Translations under genes and position numbers: made by a program
In this document: one piece after another, positions 1,043-17,243 of the stretch
Layout: each line of letters begins with the position of its first letter
How positions within the stretch are numbered: the first letter of the stretch is position 1
Notes under the pieces: model-generated
Told to the model about the DNA's origin: nothing
What the model saw: only the letters and a program-made list of their open reading frames with translations
The model's database searches: none
Source: a virus
Taxonomy: Duplodnaviria > Heunggongvirae > Uroviricota > Caudoviricetes
Reading direction: 5' to 3' (one strand)
Length of the DNA: 19,177 nucleotides
IMG/VR virus record: IMGVR_UViG_638341196_000003

Positions 1043-1087
1043 AATCTGATAGTCCGCTCTGTGCCAGGAGCAGACATTGCCAACGTT
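1043..1087. repeat. Copy 1 of a ~30-38 bp repeat family (core TGTGCCAGGAGC-R-GAC-R-TTGCCA), about 40 bp after the G stop
   Basis: Hand alignment: 1052-1087 matches 5062-5097 at about 30 of 38 positions (direct); 1043-1080 matches the reverse complement of 10722-10759 at 31 of 38. Confidence 0.5.
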
Positions 1088-2898: not shown

Positions 2899-3582
2899 AT
2901 GACTGAATGGCTTAATGCACATTTTGGTGCAGACGCAGCTACCTATCTTAGCTTATTAGTCGGCGTACTGGCACTGTTTGGTATTGGGGGCGGTGTTACA
3001 TATAGAATCAGACAGCAAAACAACATAAAACAGAAGGCAAAGAAAACCGAGGGTGATGTGAACCAGGCCGGGCGGGATATTAATCAGACCACCAACGTTT
3101 ACCACACATCCAATGAATCTACTGAGGACCCTGTAAAAAAAAAGCAAGATGAACATGATCTGAAGATAATCGACCAGATCCTTGAATTGCTGCCTTATGA
3201 GGATACTACTCAATGGGTTGAGCAGAGCTACCTGAGCGGTATACGGCAAGATGTTTGCTTAAACATTGAAAAAGCTGAAAAATTTAGCGGTGAAAAGTAT
3301 CGGTTATTCAATACTGAAGTGAATGGTGCGAAAGACGCTTTTTTGGACGCTATGACCGCATACGTAGATAGTACGCTACCATTTATGAGTGTTGATTACC
3401 CGAACAGAAAGCCAGTGATGCTAAGCCTTCCCCATGACTGGAAGAGTAAGAGTGTTGAATCGGAGGCAAACTTCCGCTTTCATCAGCAAAATGTGCGTGA
3501 AACATCGGGGGGGATGATTGCGCGCTATGAGGATTTTGTCAGGACATTTAAGGCTCATGGATTCATAAGCGATAAACTGTAA
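2899..3582 (+). CDS. Hypothetical membrane-anchored protein (227 aa): one N-terminal transmembrane helix, charged linker, soluble C-terminal domain; non-phage cargo
   Basis: Intact ORF with ATG start; hydrophobic segment YLSLLVGVLALFGIGGGV at residues ~16-33, then a Lys/Glu-rich linker. Own promoter-like region upstream and an intrinsic terminator downstream (rebuilt across the IS10-like insertion). No family recognised. Confidence 0.5.
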   Translation: MTEWLNAHFGADAATYLSLLVGVLALFGIGGGVTYRIRQQNNIKQKAKKTEGDVNQAGRDINQTTNVYHTSNESTEDPVKKKQDEHDLKIIDQILELLPYEDTTQWVEQSYLSGIRQDVCLNIEKAEKFSGEKYRLFNTEVNGAKDAFLDAMTAYVDSTLPFMSVDYPNRKPVMLSLPHDWKSKSVESEANFRFHQQNVRETSGGMIARYEDFVRTFKAHGFISDKL

Positions 3583-3675: not shown

Positions 3676-4976
3676 CTGAGGGATCCCCACAAAATTACTG
3701 CTAATAAACCAGCACCATATTTCGGTAGGTTCTGGACAGATGGTTTAGAACTGTGCTCAGTACTGTTCGTCTTAAAATAAGTGGCGAGTGTCGAAGAACA
3801 TTCTTCGCTAACGTCAGATATGAGATAACCCGCCGGGATTTAATGCTGTTAGCCTGATATTTCAGGTGTAACCCTTTATTTTCAGCGTGATAACCGAGTA
3901 ACCACATTACGATAGTGCTCAACGTTGCCAGCAGACTCAGAACCAGAATTCTTCCTGTTGAACGACTTTTGCTGGCCCGAAGACCAAATCCGAAGCGCCC
4001 GTTCTTTTCATCACGAAAGTTTTGCTCTATCTGCATTCGCCGACTGTATAACTTGATGATTTCTCGCGCTCTGAAGTCATTTGTACTGCTGAAGATCAAC
4101 CAGGCTTCTTTTGCTGATTTGCTCTGTTCTTTGTCTGTTTTGTTTAAACCACTCTGACCTTTCGAACGTTTCTTTTTTCGCCCTTTTGCCGATTTCTTAT
4201 AGGTGTAAAAATGCCCCCGGATGCTTTTTTTCCTTTCTTTAACCAGCCTTCCAGCCTCCATATATTCCGGTGTTTTACATTCAGGGCTATCCGACACTTT
4301 TAACCATCTTTCAGGCGCGTTATCGAGGCAATACTGAACGTTATTTCTGATCCGACCAATAAAATCCCAGCCCAGAGAAGTAATATGGTGAAACCATGCG
4401 CTCTGAAATCCAGCATCCGTGACAATAATAACCCTGGCATCGGGGGGCAGGGATTGAGCAAGGGAATCAAGGAAATCATGTTGTATCAATGGATTATTTT
4501 GTTTTTCAGAAGGAACAACCTTACTCAATAACGGAATGGAACGCCCGTCACACAGAAGGCTGGCACGAAGAACATGATGCTCCTGGGAGGGATAGCCACT
4601 CCAGTCTACGGCTATTACACATAAAGATAACTGCCGTGTCAGCATTGAAGTGATATTCCTGAAAATCATTGGAATATCGCGATGGAGCGCCTCATTACCC
4701 ATGAGGCGATCAATACGTTTGCTCTTATTCTTAACTTGTGCATTACCCGGGAAAAAACGTCCGATACTGGTCAGCGTCAGAGATGCTCCGTTGATTAACG
4801 CCACTGTGGCATCCATCAGGGCATTTTGTCGGTACTGATGAAATGGTGCTAAGGCATCCCGGAAGAAATTCTGACATACTTTATGAACAGGCATAGCAGT
4901 GATCTCATTGAATTGTTGGCACAAATCAGTAGATCACATAATGCTATGTCTGTCTCGTTTTCTGGGAATTCCTCAG
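3676..4976 (-). mobile_element. IS4-family, IS10-like insertion sequence (1301 bp)
   Basis: Imperfect terminal inverted repeats CTGAGGGATCCCCACAAAATT (left) and CTGAGGAATTCCCAGAAAACG (right, reverse complement), 17 of 23 matching, resembling the IS10 end CTGATGAATCCCC. Perfect 9-bp duplication CCCTCCGGG at 3667-3675 and 4977-4985. Confidence 0.7.
3701..4924 (-). CDS. IS4-family (IS10 group-like) DDE transposase, 407 aa
   Basis: Shares landmarks with IS10 transposase as recalled (KRIDRLxGN, VDWS, RAS...GRS, DAGF, IYSxRMQIEQxFRD); stop 25 bp from the left inverted repeat. Confidence 0.85.
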   Translation of the reverse strand: MCQQFNEITAMPVHKVCQNFFRDALAPFHQYRQNALMDATVALINGASLTLTSIGRFFPGNAQVKNKSKRIDRLMGNEALHRDIPMIFRNITSMLTRQLSLCVIAVDWSGYPSQEHHVLRASLLCDGRSIPLLSKVVPSEKQNNPLIQHDFLDSLAQSLPPDARVIIVTDAGFQSAWFHHITSLGWDFIGRIRNNVQYCLDNAPERWLKVSDSPECKTPEYMEAGRLVKERKKSIRGHFYTYKKSAKGRKKKRSKGQSGLNKTDKEQSKSAKEAWLIFSSTNDFRAREIIKLYSRRMQIEQNFRDEKNGRFGFGLRASKSRSTGRILVLSLLATLSTIVMWLLGYHAENKGLHLKYQANSIKSRRVISYLTLAKNVLRHSPLILRRTVLSTVLNHLSRTYRNMVLVY

Positions 4977-5061
4977 CCCTCCGGGGCGGCTTTTTTATGA
5001 CTATAATCGACAGAATCACCTGAACGTCCAGGTGGGTTTCCCTGACAGGACGTCAAGGAAT

Positions 5062-5097
5062 GTTCGCTTTGTGCCAGGAGCGGACGTTGCCAGCATT
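5062..5097. repeat. Copy 2 of the repeat family, direct relative to copy 1, about 150 bp upstream of the 261-aa ORF
   Basis: Hand alignment to 1052-1087, about 30 of 38 identical, including an uninterrupted TGTGCCAGGAGC. Confidence 0.5.
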
Positions 5098-5246
5098 GAG
5101 TTTTCAGTTTTCAAAGGTATATCTTTAGATTTAGTTCACTTAGAATGAGCGTGTTAAAGTTTTCGGTTATGTGAGTATATTGAACATAACAAATAAACAA
5201 TAATTTTTGTATTCCATTTAGGATATAAAAAAGAGGGATTTGAGTT

Positions 5247-6032
5247 ATGTACGATTATAGTTTTTTACTTACTCCATCTACAGGATTTGTTAAAGGATTA
5301 TGTGGAGTTTGGTCGAATGATTTCTCTATAAATGATGATTCTGACTCTGATTTAGGGCAAACAGATATTCATTTACTTTCATCTCCTCATTTGAATATCA
5401 TATCCGACCCAAATGAATTGGCTTCCAAGTTAAAAGGTTTGTTGATGCTCATGAACGGCGCACTTAGCGTTCTTTATGGTTTTGAAAGATATCAATCTTT
5501 TGGTCCTCTTTCTATTTCTGGAAGTGAAGGCATTAATTACTCGGAAATATGCGGCTTTAAATCAATGGATGTAACTCAGGTAAACCCCTTTAATTTCCAT
5601 GACATACAGCAACCACACCCTCGCGCTGATAATTTTTCACGATTAATTAATTTATCATCTAAACATGAATCCTTACGTGTTGTTTTAGGTATGTGTGCCT
5701 TAGGTTATGATTGGGTTAATCTTTATCGTTTGTGGGAAACAATTAGAGAATATGTATATGATAAATATGTGAAAGGTATACTAAATTTCCCCGACGCTTA
5801 TAAAGGCAAGAAATATCAGAGAGATAAAGTAATTAGCATGGCTTTTAATATTGATGAAAAGGAAATCAGCAGATTCACGGGCACTGCTAATAGCTTTGAA
5901 CTGTTAGGGTATCTTGCGAGACATGGAAAGGGAAGTTCCGGAGGGATATTAAAAAATCCGATGTCAAGAGTTGACGCAAGCATTTTCGTACACAAAGCAA
6001 CTTACAAATATTGTAAGTTATTTTTGATGTAA
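5247..6032 (+). CDS. Hypothetical protein (261 aa), AT-rich non-phage cargo gene
   Basis: Intact ORF with ATG and an upstream AGAGGGA ribosome-binding site; the gene and its upstream region are visibly AT-rich compared with the flanking tail genes. No transmembrane segment or recognisable motif. Confidence 0.5.
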   Translation: MYDYSFLLTPSTGFVKGLCGVWSNDFSINDDSDSDLGQTDIHLLSSPHLNIISDPNELASKLKGLLMLMNGALSVLYGFERYQSFGPLSISGSEGINYSEICGFKSMDVTQVNPFNFHDIQQPHPRADNFSRLINLSSKHESLRVVLGMCALGYDWVNLYRLWETIREYVYDKYVKGILNFPDAYKGKKYQRDKVISMAFNIDEKEISRFTGTANSFELLGYLARHGKGSSGGILKNPMSRVDASIFVHKATYKYCKLFLM

Positions 6033-6193: not shown

Positions 6194-6372
6194 TCATTTA
6201 GGAATAATAGAATGCAATTCGTGACTCACCTGGATTTCATAGTGTTTCAATAGTTCTCCGATGTTAATTCCTACTACCTTACGAACTGCGCCGAGGGAGA
6301 AGTTAAGCTCCTCAATGCCCGGCCGATCTGGCGTTGAATTCATATAGTGTCGGCACGCACGGACAATTGACT
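6194..6372 (-). pseudogene. 3' segment (last 58 codons plus stop) of the HNH-like cargo gene interrupted by the IS911-like element
   Basis: Minus-strand frame at 6370 continues in phase the frame ending at 8845 once the IS and one copy of the ACT duplication are removed. The N-terminal residues of listed ORF 6194-6451 lie inside the IS end and are an artefact. Confidence 0.6.
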
Positions 6373-6380
6373 TGAAGTGG

Positions 6381-8509
<2,129 letters not shown>

Positions 8510-8510
8510 G

Positions 8511-8772
8511 TAGCCTTTTTTAATATTTCATTCTCCATTTCAATGCGTTGTAGCTTTTTCCTCAGCTTACGTATTTCGATTTGTTCTGGTGTTATCGGAG
8601 AGGCTTTTGGTGTTTTGCCCTGACGCTCATCACGCAGTTGTTTGACCCATCTTGTCATTGTGGAAAGGCCAACATCCATAGCTTTGGCGGCATCTGCCAC
8701 CGTGTATTTCTGGTCAACAACCAGTTGAGCGGATTCGCGTTTAAACTCTGCGCTAAAATTTCTTTTTTTCAT
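8511..8772 (-). pseudogene. IS911-like orfA, 5' portion (codons 1-88) cut by IS30; the last 12 codons and stop resume at 7288-7247
   Basis: [56 protein letters not shown]...EILKKAT, then IS30; downstream of IS30 the frame reads [12 protein letters not shown]-stop. Confidence 0.8.
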
Positions 8773-8844
8773 TGGAGCACCTGTGTTGTTCTGAGGCGAG
8801 CATATCACCTCTGTTCAGGTGGCCAAATTCAGTGTGCCACTTCA

Positions 8845-9421
8845 ACTCGACGATCAACGATAGCGGAGACTCAGGTGCAATCTCGGAGCGAATCGCCGTA
8901 AGAGAGAGTCGGAGCTCCTTCAAAGAATCCGAGACTCGTGCTGGATCCTCTTGAGCATATGGCAGATAAAGAGAACTCTTGTCTTCCAATAAATGGATCA
9001 ACCGCAGAGCAATTTTCTCGTCTGGGCGATGCGATAGAAATTGAAACATTAGCCTCTTTCCTCCCTCCAAGCACTCCTTCATTAGTGATTCGTGGTTACG
9101 TTTCCATTTTCGCAAATACTCGGCGGGGTAGCCCATACCGCCATTCTTATCAACTAAATCAGCACAAGCTCCGCACAACCATATAGCATTTTTTATGCTC
9201 TTCCGCTCTGTTTCTGACTGAGACATGTCATAGCGCGGTCCGCCAGGGCTCGCCGCGCAGATATGCGCCGCCTCACCCGTCTTGATAGAAAGATTTTCCG
9301 CCAATTGATCCGGGCCGATTGTTACCCTATGACAAGAGGGATTGCTACAAATATATGTAGCGCGCTCTGCTACCTTACCTACAACGCTTGGAGGAAAGTT
9401 GTGCCTATTTGTCTTGGTCAT
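8845..9421 (-). pseudogene. 5' segment (codons 1-192) of the HNH-like cargo gene interrupted by the IS911-like element
   Basis: ATG at 9421; product carries CSNPSCH...GEAAHICAASPGG...NAIWLCGACADLVD, an HNH-type Cys/His/Asn signature with non-canonical substitutions. The tail of listed ORF 8753-9421 beyond 8845 is read-through into the IS. Confidence 0.6.
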
Positions 9422-9492
9422 AAAAGTTATGCTTCTTTGTTTTTTTCATCTATGTGGGGAGAATAAAATCATACTTTTTATATCTGATCCTA

Positions 9493-10645
9493 AATAGCTG
9501 CGCTTAATACCGCTACACTTTTGCCAGTCCATGTTTGCCTCCGGGGAATGGGCTGACGGTTTCCATAAAATGGCGAACTTTTTTCAACAGTTGCCACATT
9601 GAGCGGCACTGATGATTACGCGTTATTGTGTCGTGAAGTGCCTGCCATAGCCGTTCAACATGATTCACCCATGGCGAGTAAACCGGCTGATAAATGACCC
9701 TGAACTTCGGGTTCTCCTTCAGCCAGCTCTGTGTTTCCCGGCTTTTGTGGATAATGTAGTTGTCCACGATCAGCGTGATGGTTTTCGCCCGACGGTATGT
9801 CGCTTTAAGCCGCTTCAGCAGGCTGATGAACAGCGCCGAACTTTTGCTGTTGCCGCCCACATAGCTGACTTTACCTGTCCCGCTGTGCAGCGCTCCGGCC
9901 AGATAATATTTTTCATTCTGTCCCGGCGTGACCACCCGTTTTTGCTGTCCGCGCAGTTGCCAGTCCGCACCGATTTTGGGATGAAGATGGATATCCACTT
10001 CATCTTCATAAAAGACCGGATGCTCTGCGCTGCATTCGTCCAGTGCTTTATGGATTGCTGCCATCTTTTCATCTTTATGCGGGTCACGGATACGCAGAGT
10101 TGGCGCAGCCCTTCGCCACACAATCCCCGCAGACGGCAACCAGCGGCGAACGGTTCCGGCATTTAACTGGCAACCGGTTATCTCATTGATTTTTATTGCC
10201 AGCAGTTCTGTACTCCAGCGTGAACGCTGGTAGACAAAGTCGCCGGGAGAATGTTTTACCAGCTCACGTAACAGTGTGCAGATATGCTCAAACGGCCAGC
10301 GACGGGCACGCCCGGCAGGTAATGATTTCAGTCCCTCAACACCCGACTGCGTGAACCAGTTAATCCAGCGTCCAACAGAGGAACGGGCGCAGCAGAGCGT
10401 TCTGGCAACGTCGCTGACACGGTCGCCCCGGTGCAGCATCAGCATGGCAGTCAGTCTGCGGGCATAATTTTTATCGTGTGTTTTATGGATGGCTTTCTGC
10501 ATCAGGCGTCGTTCGTCACGGGAAATTGGTGCTATGATCGGCATTGCTCAGTCCGGTTGGTGATTTGTTTTGATTTGGCGATTGATCAGATCGCACAATC
10601 CGGGCTAAGTTCCCTCAAAATGATCTACTATTCCGCGCAGCTATT
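9493..10645 (-). mobile_element. IS630 insertion sequence, complete (1153 bp)
   Basis: 343-aa transposase; imperfect terminal inverted repeats (AATAGCTGCGC...); flanking TA duplication at 9491-9492 and 10646-10647; reconstructed target GATCCTAGGTCTG contains CTAG. Confidence 0.9.
9513..10544 (-). CDS. IS630 (Tc1/mariner superfamily) transposase
   Basis: 343-aa product MPIIAPISRDERRLMQKAIHKTHDKNYARRL... matches IS630 transposase from recall. Confidence 0.9.
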   Translation of the reverse strand: MPIIAPISRDERRLMQKAIHKTHDKNYARRLTAMLMLHRGDRVSDVARTLCCARSSVGRWINWFTQSGVEGLKSLPAGRARRWPFEHICTLLRELVKHSPGDFVYQRSRWSTELLAIKINEITGCQLNAGTVRRWLPSAGIVWRRAAPTLRIRDPHKDEKMAAIHKALDECSAEHPVFYEDEVDIHLHPKIGADWQLRGQQKRVVTPGQNEKYYLAGALHSGTGKVSYVGGNSKSSALFISLLKRLKATYRRAKTITLIVDNYIIHKSRETQSWLKENPKFRVIYQPVYSPWVNHVERLWQALHDTITRNHQCRSMWQLLKKVRHFMETVSPFPGGKHGLAKV

Positions 10646-10721
10646 TAGGTCTGACCAGCAACCTATTGATCAAAAAACCAAGATATTAGCTAAAAAAAAT
10701 CAGCATACTTGAGACCAAGCT

Positions 10722-10759
10722 CAATGTCCGCTCCTCGCTCAAAGCAGACTGTCAGATTT
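10722..10759. repeat. Copy 3 of the repeat family, inverted relative to copy 1, about 180 bp upstream of FI
   Basis: 10722-10759 matches the reverse complement of 1043-1080 at 31 of 38 positions by hand alignment. Confidence 0.5.
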
Positions 10760-10819
10760 GATAGCATTTGGGCTATGTAAATTGTCAGGCGGAAAATGAG
10801 TGAGTACAAATCAGGACAG

Positions 10820-10849
10820 GCGGGCGAATTGCCCGCATTTTCTTTATCT
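10820..10849 (+). terminator. Terminator-like hairpin (GCGGGC-GAATT-GCCCGC followed by ATTTTCTTTATCT) upstream of FI
   Basis: Perfect 6-bp GC stem with 5-nt loop and a T-rich tail on the + strand; could insulate the FI late operon from the cargo island. Confidence 0.35.
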
Positions 10850-10941
10850 GTTGTTTCATCCCCTGACCAGCCAGGTCAAATAGCGTCTCATGCTCTGCAC
10901 AACAGAAAATAGTTGCACCCATTAACCACGGAGTTAAACGG

Positions 10942-12132
10942 ATGAGTGACTATCATCACGGCGTGCAGGTGCTGGAGATTAACGACGGCACCCGCGTCAT
11001 TTCCACCGTATCCACGGCCATTGTCGGCATGGTCTGCACGGCCAGCGATGCAGATGCGGAAACCTTCCCCCTCAATAAACCGGTGCTGATTACCAATGTG
11101 CAGAGCGCAATTGCAAAGGCCGGTAAAAAAGGCACGCTGGCGGCGTCGTTACAGGCCATCGCTGACCAGTCAAAACCGGTCACCGTTGTTGTGCGCGTGG
11201 AAGACGGCACCGGCGACGACGAAGAAACGAAGCTCGCGCAGACCGTTTCCAATATCATCGGCACCACCGACGAAAACGGTCAGTACACCGGACTGAAAGC
11301 CCTGCTGGCGGCGGAGTCGGTAACCGGTGTTAAACCGCGCATTCTCGGTGTGCCGGGACTGGATACCAAAGAGGTGGCTGTTGCACTGGCATCAGTCTGT
11401 CAGAAGCTGCGCGCTTTCGGGTATATCAGCGCATGGGGCTGTAAAACCATTTCCGAGGTGAAAGCCTACCGCCAGAATTTCAGCCAGCGTGAGCTGATGG
11501 TCATCTGGCCGGATTTCCTCGCATGGGATACGGTCACCAGTACCACCTCCACCGCGTATGCCACCGCCCGTGCGCTGGGGCTGCGCGCTAAAATCGACCA
11601 GGAGCAGGGCTGGCATAAAACGCTGTCCAACGTCGGGGTGAACGGTGTTACCGGCATCAGCGCGTCCGTATTCTGGGATTTGCAGGAGTCCGGCACCGAT
11701 GCTGACCTGCTTAACGAGTCAGGCGTCACAACGCTGATTCGCCGTGACGGTTTCCGCTTCTGGGGTAACCGTACCTGCTCTGATGACCCGCTGTTCCTCT
11801 TTGAAAACTACACCCGCACCGCGCAGGTGCTGGCCGACACGATGGCTGAGGCGCACATGTGGGCGGTGGACAAGCCCATCACCGCAACGCTGATTCGCGA
11901 CATCGTTGACGGCATCAATGCCAAATTCCGTGAGCTGAAAACAAACGGCTATATCGTGGATGCGACCTGCTGGTTCAGCGAAGAATCCAACGATGCGGAA
12001 ACCCTCAAGGCCGGAAAACTGTATATCGACTACGACTATACACCGGTGCCTCCTCTCGAAAACCTGACCCTGCGCCAGCGTATTACCGATAAATACCAGG
12101 CAAATCTGGTCACCTCGGTTAACAGCAATTAA
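10942..12132 (+). CDS. FI: Contractile tail sheath protein (P2 gpFI-like)
   Basis: 396-aa ORF, same length as P2 FI; position and order match the P2 FI-FII-E-T-U-D cluster. Confidence 0.9.
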   Translation: MSDYHHGVQVLEINDGTRVISTVSTAIVGMVCTASDADAETFPLNKPVLITNVQSAIAKAGKKGTLAASLQAIADQSKPVTVVVRVEDGTGDDEETKLAQTVSNIIGTTDENGQYTGLKALLAAESVTGVKPRILGVPGLDTKEVAVALASVCQKLRAFGYISAWGCKTISEVKAYRQNFSQRELMVIWPDFLAWDTVTSTTSTAYATARALGLRAKIDQEQGWHKTLSNVGVNGVTGISASVFWDLQESGTDADLLNESGVTTLIRRDGFRFWGNRTCSDDPLFLFENYTRTAQVLADTMAEAHMWAVDKPITATLIRDIVDGINAKFRELKTNGYIVDATCWFSEESNDAETLKAGKLYIDYDYTPVPPLENLTLRQRITDKYQANLVTSVNSN

Positions 12133-15600: not shown

Positions 15601-16080
15601 ATGATGCTCGCGTTAGGTATGTTTGTTTTTATGCGCCAGACGCTGCCACATCAGACCATGCAGCGTGAATCAGATTATCGCTGGCCGTCAAATTCCCGTA
15701 TCGGTAAACGGGATGCCTATCAGTTTCTCGGTGTAGGTGAGGAGAACATCACACTTGCCGGTGTGCTTTATCCCGAACTGACTGGCGGAAAGCTGACGAT
15801 GACCACGCTCAGACTGATGGCAGAGGAAGGCCGGGCGTGGCCGTTGCTGGATGGCACCGGCATGATTTACGACATGTATGTCATCAGCAAGGTGAGTGAA
15901 ACAGGGAGTATTTTCTTTGCAGACGGCACACCCCGGAAAATTGATTTTACGCTGTCGCTCACCCGCGTTGATGAGTCACTGGCCGCGCTTTATGGCGATA
16001 TCGGTAAACAGGCGGAATCGCTCATCGGTAAGGCTGGCAGTATGGCGACTAAATTCACGGGTATGACGGGGGCGGGATAA
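15601..16080 (+). CDS. U: Tail protein (P2 gpU-like)
   Basis: 159-aa ORF after T; stop overlaps the next start (TAATG) as in P2 U-D. Confidence 0.8.
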   Translation: MMLALGMFVFMRQTLPHQTMQRESDYRWPSNSRIGKRDAYQFLGVGEENITLAGVLYPELTGGKLTMTTLRLMAEEGRAWPLLDGTGMIYDMYVISKVSETGSIFFADGTPRKIDFTLSLTRVDESLAALYGDIGKQAESLIGKAGSMATKFTGMTGAG

Positions 16081-17243
16081 TGCTGGATGCGCTGACATTT
16101 GATGCAGGCAGTACGCTGACGCCGGATTACATGCTGATGCTCGACAGCAGGGATATTACCGGCAATATCAGCGACCGTCTGATGAGCATGACCCTGACGG
16201 ATAACCGGGGCTTTGAGGCTGACCAGCTTGATATTGAACTGAACGATGCCGACGGGCAGGTCGGGCTGCCGGTTCGTGGCGCTGTCCTGACGGTGTATAT
16301 CGGCTGGAAAGGTTTTGCCCTGGTATGCAAAGGGAAATTTACCGTTGATGAGGTTGAACACCGGGGCGCACCGGATGTGGTCACCATCCGCGCCCGGAGT
16401 GCAGATTTTCGCGGGACGCTCAATTCCCGCCGGGAAGGCTCATGGCATGACACCACGCTCGGTGCGATTGTTGAGGCGATAGCCTCCCGGAACAGGCTGG
16501 AAGCCAGTGTCGCTCCGTCACTGGCCGGAATTAAAATTCCGCACATCGACCAGTCGCAGGAGTCTGATGCGAAATTCCTGACCCGCCTTGCTGAACGCAA
16601 CGGCGGTGAGGTGTCGGTAAAAATGGGAAAACTGCTGTTTCTCAAAGCGGGGCAGGGGGTGACGGCCAGCGGTAAAAAAATCCCGCAGATTACCATCACC
16701 CGCAGCGACGGCGACCGTCATCATTTTGCGATTGCTGACCGTGGAGCCTACACCGGCGTAATGGCAAAGTGGTTACACACCAAAGACCCGAAGCCACAAA
16801 AGCAGAAGATAAAACTGAAACGCAAAAAGAAAGAGAAACACCTGCGCGCACCGGAGCACCCGAAAGCGAAACCGGTCAGGCAGAAGAAAGCGCCTAAAGT
16901 ACCGGAAGCGCGCGAAGGTGAATACATGGCCGGTGAGGCTGATAACGTTTTTGCCCTGACTACGGTATATGCCACAAAAGCGCAGGCCATGCGCGCCGCT
17001 CAGGCGAAGTGGGATAAGCTGCAACGGGGCGTGGCGGAGTTCTCCATCAGTCTGGCTACTGGTCGGGCAGATATTTACACGGAAACGCCGGTCAAAGTGT
17101 CAGGTTTTAAGCGCGTCATAGACGAGCAGGACTGGACAATCACTAAGGTGACACACTTTCTGAATAATAGCGGCTTCACGACGTCCTTAGAGCTTGAGGT
17201 CAGGCTTTCTGATGTGGAGTACGAAACAGAAGGTGATGAGTAA
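16080..17243 (+). CDS. D: Tail protein D (P2 gpD-like)
   Basis: 387-aa ORF with a Lys-rich internal segment (KPQKQKIKLKRKKKEK), same length and position as P2 D. Confidence 0.85.
   Translation: MLDALTFDAGSTLTPDYMLMLDSRDITGNISDRLMSMTLTDNRGFEADQLDIELNDADGQVGLPVRGAVLTVYIGWKGFALVCKGKFTVDEVEHRGAPDVVTIRARSADFRGTLNSRREGSWHDTTLGAIVEAIASRNRLEASVAPSLAGIKIPHIDQSQESDAKFLTRLAERNGGEVSVKMGKLLFLKAGQGVTASGKKIPQITITRSDGDRHHFAIADRGAYTGVMAKWLHTKDPKPQKQKIKLKRKKKEKHLRAPEHPKAKPVRQKKAPKVPEAREGEYMAGEADNVFALTTVYATKAQAMRAAQAKWDKLQRGVAEFSISLATGRADIYTETPVKVSGFKRVIDEQDWTITKVTHFLNNSGFTTSLELEVRLSDVEYETEGDE

Follow-up and report, generated by a model that had tools for sequence, protein, structure and literature searches.

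IS630 at a CTAG site splits the conserved 5' region of a predicted anti-phage nuclease gene in an eroding P2-like prophage remnant

The window, by which we mean the whole stretch of 19,177 nucleotides analysed here (IMG/VR virus record IMGVR_UViG_638341196_000003; Caudoviricetes), contains a gene that is interrupted within its coding region and that also has an insertion sequence, IS630, a short distance upstream of its start codon. This arrangement raises the question of what the upstream insertion did to the gene, in particular whether it took the promoter away, and which of the two insertions came first. The upstream element and its ends were delimited as follows.

9493–10645, minus strand: complete IS630, 1153 bp, with 99.7% identity to annotated IS630 along its full length
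9491–9492: left copy of the TA target-site duplication, preceded by C; a single CTAG in the empty alleles
10646–10647: right copy of the TA target-site duplication, followed by G (junction comparison)
9493–9509: terminal inverted repeat of IS630, on the 3' side of the transposase gene
10629–10645: terminal inverted repeat of IS630, on the 5' side of the transposase gene
9513–10544, minus strand: intact IS630 transposase ORF, 343 aa, matching Pfam DDE_3 and HTH_23/29/32

The interval 9491–10647 consists of the element and both TA copies. At the DNA level the element matches E. coli sequences annotated as 'IS630-like element IS630 family transposase' (99.7% over 1153 bp), and inverted-repeat arms were detected at 9489–9509 and 10629–10649 (21 nt, 90% complementary). 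The transposase matches Pfam DDE_3 at 2.6e-24 with its HTH domains in the N-terminal part, and it scored 255.5 bits against the NCBIfam IS630 equivalog (transpos_IS630, NF033545), for which the cutoff is 100. When compared with four annotated, independent IS630 copies from EIEC pINV plasmids and E. coli chromosomes, the window copy has the same length and ends, and G104V is its sole private transposase substitution. It shares with IS630 of Shigella sonnei (IS630/Tc1/mariner superfamily) the length of 1153 bp, the 343-aa DDE transposase and the CTAG target, and differs from it only in G104V and in the new insertion site. By these measures the element is an ordinary IS630, already known in kind and not a new element type; it is complete and probably still active.

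The window reads ...GATCC-TA on the left of the element and TA-GGTCTG on the right, and in-silico removal of IS630 together with one TA yields GATCCTAGGTCTG. All five independent IS630 copies examined (5/5, the window copy included) are preceded by C-TA and followed by TA-G, and in the IS-free reconstruction of the window 6 of the 617 TA dinucleotides (~1%) lie inside CTAG. IS630 is described as preferring CTAG and duplicating TA in passages of PMC2170065 and PMC6811581 that cite Tenzen and Ohtsubo (1991). The element, which encodes a Tc1/mariner-like DDE transposase, inserted by cut-and-paste into the TA of CTAG, at a distance of 69 nt from the nuclease ATG (9421).

The joined IS630 flanks were searched against 5426 complete E. 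coli genomes, and the uninterrupted site was found in 15 records. In E. coli cM2a the empty site reads GATCCTAGGGCTG; the gene has the same position there as in the window, with a tail fibre assembly gene on one side and the P2 FI sheath gene on the other, and the locus is a P2 prophage remnant adjoining yegR/yegS and ogrK. In AH65 and 13 other E. coli the same cargo occupies another island, beside DarT and a type I restriction system, and the sequence spanning their uninterrupted site matches the reconstruction from the window at 100% identity. By blastn, the window equals the cM2a locus plus four simple insertions. The IS630 insertion at this site was found in none of the 5426 complete E. 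coli genomes, and the exact IS630 junction had no match among the GTDB representatives (one genome per species). According to the original prediction, the element was IS630, it had duplicated the TA of a CTAG some 70 bp ahead of the gene, and its target could be reconstructed as GATC-CTAG-GTCTG. These points are borne out: identity, repeats, flanks and empty alleles agree, and the empty E. coli alleles read GATC-CTAG-G(T/G)CTG at the exact site.

The gene downstream of IS630 is divided in two by a second insertion, and further insertion sequences lie in the same region.

8845–9421, minus strand: 5' part of the nuclease gene, codons 1–192; RefSeq 'DUF6650 family protein', 250 aa when intact
6194–6372, minus strand: 3' part of the nuclease gene, codons 193–250 plus stop, displaced by IS911::IS30 (blastn against cM2a)
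6373–8844, minus strand: IS911 interrupted by IS30, a 2472-bp composite; the coding-region insertion
7289–8509: IS30 inside IS911
About 1493–2819: IS2 (blastn against cM2a)
About 3676–4976: ISSfl1-like IS4-family element (blastn against cM2a)

The first 120 residues of the encoded protein match PADLOC PDC-M68A (3.6e-24), CBASS HNH effectors (3.6e-20) and the Shedu N-terminal nuclease, and in the PDB they match 9om4_A, an 'HNH endonuclease' (1.3e-11), followed by 8ysq, 8fm1 and 7rwk (HNH or Cap5 chains). Seven residues, C24, C29, H52, N77, C82, C85 and D90, are invariant in six homologues, which is the pattern of a zinc-stabilised HNH site. The PADLOC and PDB matches together with the invariant His, Asn and Cys residues agree with the earlier description of the gene as HNH-like. 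Pfam and NCBIfam scans of either half of the nuclease (Pfam to E = 10) gave no match and no Pfam HNH model, and the C-terminal 130 aa matched nothing in the Pfam copy searched. PF20355 (DUF6650) appears in the precomputed Pfam hits and in the RefSeq name, but this label was not reproduced by hmmscan of each half against the local Pfam copy at E = 10; BLASTP of the nuclease against the DUF6650-containing DS-27 protein also gave no match. DUF6650 has been described as the ThsG effector domain of type VI Thoeris (bioRxiv 10.64898/2025.12.03.692087). No TIR partner gene is present in the cassette, and no conserved partner (TIR, cyclase or methylase) was found beside distant homologues. In the DefensePredictor study (PMC13092281), the product of this gene, WP_059356353.1, is a 'predicted novel defense gene' with a log-odds of 5.5 and is not among the tested units (not in Table S6). 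We regard the gene as a predicted anti-phage nuclease with a Cap5-type HNH domain. It resembles the Cap5-type HNH effectors of CBASS and PDC-M68 in that residues 1–120 align and the catalytic His and Asn and the four-Cys zinc site are kept, whereas it lacks a SAVED domain and has neither a cyclase nor a TIR partner nearby.

The nuclease gene is one of three cargo genes, the others being a 227-aa gene and DS-29, in the G-FI (fun/Z) moron locus. The host element is a cryptic P2-like prophage remnant at yegR-ogrK in which only tail genes are left. Two neighbouring genes bear on the interpretation.

5247–6032, plus strand: DS-29 ('HEP3'), intact, convergent with the nuclease gene, one residue different from WP_061089765.1
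10942–12132, plus strand: P2 FI tail sheath gene, untouched, with sheath domains; IS630 lies 296 bp upstream of its ATG

From 10722 onward the window is 96.6% identical to Peduovirus P2, and the cargo locus is syntenic with cM2a and with one other sequence (L014). The G-FI position is one of three moron regions of P2-like phages (PMC6823313), and other P2-like phages carry unrelated genes there. As at the P2 fun(Z) locus, the cargo of the window is flanked by the genes for tail fibre assembly and for the FI sheath; unlike at that locus, the cargo comprises three genes and the prophage is a remnant. DS-29 is a single-gene HEPN defence system that protected against phage on its own (DefensePredictor, PMC13092281). 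The window neighbour at 5247–6032 is one residue off the tested protein, but it is not the gene hit by IS630. Since DS-29 was validated alone, the HNH gene is not needed for DS-29 activity. The pair of HNH gene and DS-29 recurs in Sodalis, Enterobacter (in a lambdoid prophage), Serratia and Klebsiella, and DS-29 is absent beside more distant homologues and in a Klebsiella/Citrobacter context; the two genes appear linked but separable. The idea that the three cargo genes form one fixed unit was rejected because homologues of 72–77% identity occur without both neighbours. The 227-aa and 261-aa neighbours of the nuclease gene had no significant family in Pfam or NCBIfam.

The IS911::IS30 composite is inserted after codon 192 of the nuclease gene and is flanked by a 3-bp ACT duplication (6370–6372 and 8845–8847). 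When 6373–8847 was excised in silico, the full 250-aa ORF was regained; it differs by three substitutions from the allele of E. coli cM2a and by one from that of S. boydii, indicating that the gene died recently. This excision also sustains the earlier claim that the gene was hit twice, in its 5' region and in its coding region. The 10-kb cargo region holds four IS insertions in all, which amount to five IS elements with one of them nested.

The truncated 222-aa ORF of the window has exact matches in seven public contigs, the proteins being labelled Shigella boydii and Shigella dysenteriae. The left IS630 junction is present in two long and three short contigs, and the right junction in both long ones. 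A full-length 250-aa version, labelled S. boydii, was found on GCA_000268145.1 and in two sequencing runs. These three sequences are collinear with the window at 99.8–99.9% identity and have the same IS630 junctions and the ISSfl1-like element, without IS911::IS30. Because three assemblies combine an identical IS630 site with an intact ORF and lack the composite, the IS630 insertion is older than the coding insertion. By parsimony, and on the assumption that IS911::IS30 was not precisely excised in the intact-ORF strains, IS630 came first and IS911::IS30 second, with the window lineage gaining the composite after codon 192 in a later step. This order, drawn from the S. boydii-labelled assemblies, is new here. 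The prophage would belong to a Shigella lineage labelled boydii/dysenteriae, an assignment that follows the protein labels of identical sequences. A similar event, the insertion of IS630 at CTAG in fliC of Shigella sonnei, is described in passages of PMC6811581 and involves the same element, the same motif and reductive Shigella evolution; by that description the insertion there is in the coding region, whereas here it is in 5' non-coding sequence and the coding insertion was made by a different IS. Taken as a whole, we put the probability at about 0.78 that the locus reflects IS-driven erosion of prophage cargo, typical of Shigella, in which IS630 split the 5' region of the gene.

We then considered which sequence the IS630 insertion had separated from the gene.

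9422–9490, minus strand: proximal part of the conserved 5' region, still joined to the gene (eight-context alignment); holds TATGAT at 9473–9468
10648–10749, minus strand: outer 102 bp of the conserved 5' region, displaced by 1.15 kb; includes the block ATCTTGGTT..TTGATCAA
10820–10836, plus strand: intrinsic-terminator-like hairpin followed by a T-run, in P2 backbone between the cargo and the FI upstream region

An alignment of eight unrelated contexts showed conservation for about 173 bp before the ATG and then an abrupt loss in every context. In the window this region corresponds to 9422–9492 plus 10648–10749, and IS630 splits it 71/102, with the strongly conserved block ATCTTGGTT..TTGATCAA among the displaced 102 bp. 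Homology to P2-like phages with other cargo begins at 10722/3. The original prediction took about 300 bp to have lain upstream of the gene and to be shared divergently with FI, which does not hold: judged by the conservation edge at 10749 and the start of P2 sequence at 10722/3, the interval is made up of about 100 bp of gene-specific sequence and about 200 bp of phage backbone. Expression of FI should be unaffected because its gene is 296 bp away from IS630 and behind the terminator. The 5' region matched no family in an Rfam scan and had a folding z of -1.2.

A strict sigma-70 scan of both alleles found no promoter, and the best score in a weight-matrix sigma-70 scan was 7.3, compared with a median best of 9.5 for shuffled sequence. 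No P2 late-promoter dyad (TGT-N12-ACA) was found in 10700–10945. The sole -10-like hexamer kept in 8/8 contexts, as TATGAT, TAGAAT or TAGATT, lies 48–52 nt before the ATG (9473–9468 in the window) and stays with the gene. With a 17-nt spacer the -35 position of this hexamer is CTAG itself, and no recognisable -35 for it was seen in either allele. Another such hexamer lies about 130 nt upstream, within the displaced sequence; it is kept as TATGCT/TATGAT in 7/8 contexts and could be the real promoter. Conservation alone guides where we would place the promoter. The transposase gene is co-directional with the nuclease gene at a stop-to-ATG gap of 91 nt, no terminator-like site was found on the minus strand between the transposase stop (9513) and the ATG (9421), and read-through from the one gene into the other is possible.

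Since the conserved -10 is retained and its -35 position falls on CTAG, a split of the 5' region fits these data better than a removal of the promoter. The reading we favour, at slightly less than even odds, is that IS630 split the promoter region and detached the conserved upstream block. The core -10 (TATGAT, 9473–9468) would have stayed with the gene, the insertion would have come to lie at the -35 position, and the conserved upstream block would have been lost, so that native transcription control would be lost or changed without deletion of the whole promoter. Any transcription that is left could be due to read-through from the transposase gene, which points the same way. The earlier claim that the insertion probably removes the promoter is thus only partly retained. 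The conserved 5' region is indeed split and 102 bp of it are displaced, but the only -10 conserved in 8/8 contexts remains with the gene, and no sigma-70 candidate on either side of the element scores above shuffled sequence.

It is less probable, although still a serious contender, that all of the native promoter lies right of the element, from 10648 onward, and that its removal by IS630 had silenced the gene by the time of the coding insertion. The displaced 102 bp of the conserved 5' region, which include its most conserved block, are consistent with this, as is the pair CGGACA-17-TATGCT (10730–10702), the second-best sigma-70-like pair in the IS-free allele with a score of 6.1 (the top pair is TTGAGC-17-GATTTT, 7.1), whose -10 is kept as TATGCT/TATGAT in 7/8 contexts. 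However, its score is below the shuffled median best of 9.5, its -35 is not conserved and its hexamer is missing from the context that diverges most. P2 backbone moreover makes up most of the claimed 300 bp, and in some strains the ORF is intact after the IS630 insertion, though the elapsed time is short.

Somewhat more doubtful is that the insertion was neutral or even activating, with a promoter within the retained 70 bp or with read-through from the IS630 transposase gene, so that the intact-ORF strains would still express the nuclease. The best-conserved -10-like hexamer is retained, the two genes lie on the same strand with 91 nt from stop to ATG and no terminator-like site between them, and the ORF has remained intact in three S. 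boydii-labelled assemblies despite IS630. Against this, the -35 position at a 17-nt spacer is taken by the insertion site, the hybrid pair TTTAGG-15-TATGAT is weak (6.4), and an outward promoter of IS630 was not detected in the strict and weight-matrix scans. Finally, although IS elements crowd the region, it is scarcely credible that the junctions arose by assembly artefact or by recombination between IS copies rather than by simple transposition, as the TA duplication is exact, the empty site restored in silico matches real alleles, both flanks are collinear with E. coli, and both IS630 junctions recur identically in at least five other, independent public assemblies, which speaks against an assembly artefact.

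The conserved 5' region that IS630 split ends, at its outer side, in a short motif.

10722–10749, minus strand: boundary motif GTCTGCTTTGAGCGAGGAGCGGACATTG, 28 nt, covering the outer cargo edge and the first P2 backbone bases

The motif has the consensus GTCCGCTTTGTGCCAGGAGCGGACGTTG, and each cargo module carries it at its outer end. Three copies are present in the window, where none is expected by chance: at 1052–1079, just after the tail fibre assembly gene and at the left cargo edge; at 5062–5089, upstream of DS-29; and at 10722–10749. Each copy is oriented toward the next cargo gene. The motif marks both edges of the P2 G-FI locus, and it does likewise in phage P2 around different cargo. 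A degenerate-pattern search of IMG/VR returned 119 prophage stretches with 205 distinct instances and unrelated flanks. Consecutive copies formed 59 inward-facing pairs (315–4743 bp apart), 24 back-to-back pairs (22 of them 28–46 bp apart) and 31 tandem pairs, and neighbouring modules meet back-to-back with a fixed spacing of about 46 bp. DarT/DarG, CBASS, Pycsar, ThsB, PD-Lambda-1, PD-T7-1, PDC-S33, the HNH gene and others are enclosed by inward-facing pairs. Among the 5426 E. coli genomes, 3401 contain one to five copies, at unannotated positions.

A possible motif stem of 7–8 bp showed no covariation and had no Rfam match, and the notion of a hairpin was rejected on present evidence, as the stem positions vary independently (TA at pair 4/21: 5 seen, 5.1 expected). 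The motif looks conserved as DNA sequence and not as a hairpin. How cassettes are swapped in P2 and P4 hotspots has been described as a mechanism not understood (PMC13586616). A speculative proposal, which we think unlikely to be correct as it stands, is that the motif serves defence cassettes, for instance the pair of HNH gene and DS-29, as a recombination site or a short homology arm when they move among P2-like prophages, lambdoid prophages and chromosomal islands. The motif sequence was not found in the literature searched. A report by Nilsson et al. (2004, Mol Biol Evol 21:1), the title of which is said to concern site-specific recombination in P2-like coliphages, may already describe it.

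The finding itself is minor, one more IS630 at its textbook target in the eroding cargo of a Shigella prophage. It is nevertheless a clean example of stepwise inactivation, in which an insertion into the 5' region was followed by one into the coding region, and the inactivated gene is a predicted anti-phage nuclease beside the validated and still intact DS-29. The S. boydii-type strains, which carry IS630 and an intact ORF, offer a natural experiment on whether expression requires the 102 bp that were displaced. The boundary motif could matter more, as it may explain the swapping of defence cassettes at prophage hotspots.

The IS911 that interrupts the nuclease gene carries an IS30 within it (window 6373-8844), and a 3-bp ACT duplication was found at the ends of IS911. 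The composite therefore moved as one 2472-bp unit with IS30 already inside, and its transposition was presumably driven by IS911 transposase provided in trans. Exact copies of this composite occur in 758 of 5426 E. coli genomes. In the public assembly GCA_900618165.1 (L015), the nested 1221-bp IS30 (3913-5133) lies in the orientation opposite to that of the window (7289-8509) and of L016, a further public assembly, while its flanks are otherwise identical to both; the nested element has either inverted or been assembled differently.

The IS630 transposase is intact in the window, whereas in L021, an S. boydii-labelled assembly, the transposase at the same insertion site is split into ORFs of 246 aa and 84 aa (L021 1877-2909); the nuclease ORF is intact there. 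About 300 bp of the tail U/D gene region (window 16032-16328) is kept in the window but deleted in the P2 remnant of E. coli cM2a (L001, about 12033), where both genes at the deletion are annotated as partial.

The two cargo genes accompanying the nuclease gene and the copies of a 28-nt boundary motif are as follows.

2899-3582, + strand, third cargo gene (227 aa), protein identical to WP_000141343.1
5247-6032, + strand, intact DS-29 ('HEP3') homologue, one residue different from the tested protein
1052-1079 (+), 5062-5089 (+) and 10722-10749 (-), boundary motif in the window
907 and 2501 in L014, 2334 and 4351 in L028, 2329 and 4358 in L032, boundary motif in other loci

DS-29 is a validated single-gene HEPN defence system (PMC13092281). 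Upstream of the start of the window homologue, at a distance of about 270 bp and beyond the gene's boundary motif, is an ISSfl1-like element (3676-4976). A hydrophobic helix lies at the N-terminus of the 227-aa protein, which matched no family in the libraries searched; its gene is listed as a 'predicted novel defense gene' with a log-odds of 5.3 (PMC13092281). IS2 (about 1493-2819) sits upstream of this gene.

The conserved 28-nt motif (consensus GTCCGCTTTGTGCCAGGAGCGGACGTTG) stands at the outer borders of cargo modules in prophages. It was found in 119 IMG/VR loci, and E. coli genomes carry 1-5 copies. Among consecutive copies, 59 pairs face inward with known defence systems between them and 22 stand back to back at a spacing of 28-46 bp. 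The motif showed no covariation in its stem and no match in Rfam, and it could serve as a signal for cassette exchange or for regulation. Nilsson et al. 2004 may already have described it.

The nuclease (L001 5825-6577) and its homologues are labelled 'DUF6650' (PF20355) by RefSeq and by precomputed Pfam hits, and PF20355 is the ThsG effector domain of type VI Thoeris. An hmmscan search of the nuclease against the Pfam copy used, taken to an E-value of 10, yielded no match to DUF6650. Should the label hold, the protein would be an HNH-DUF6650 fusion lacking a TIR partner, and such an architecture would be uncommon.
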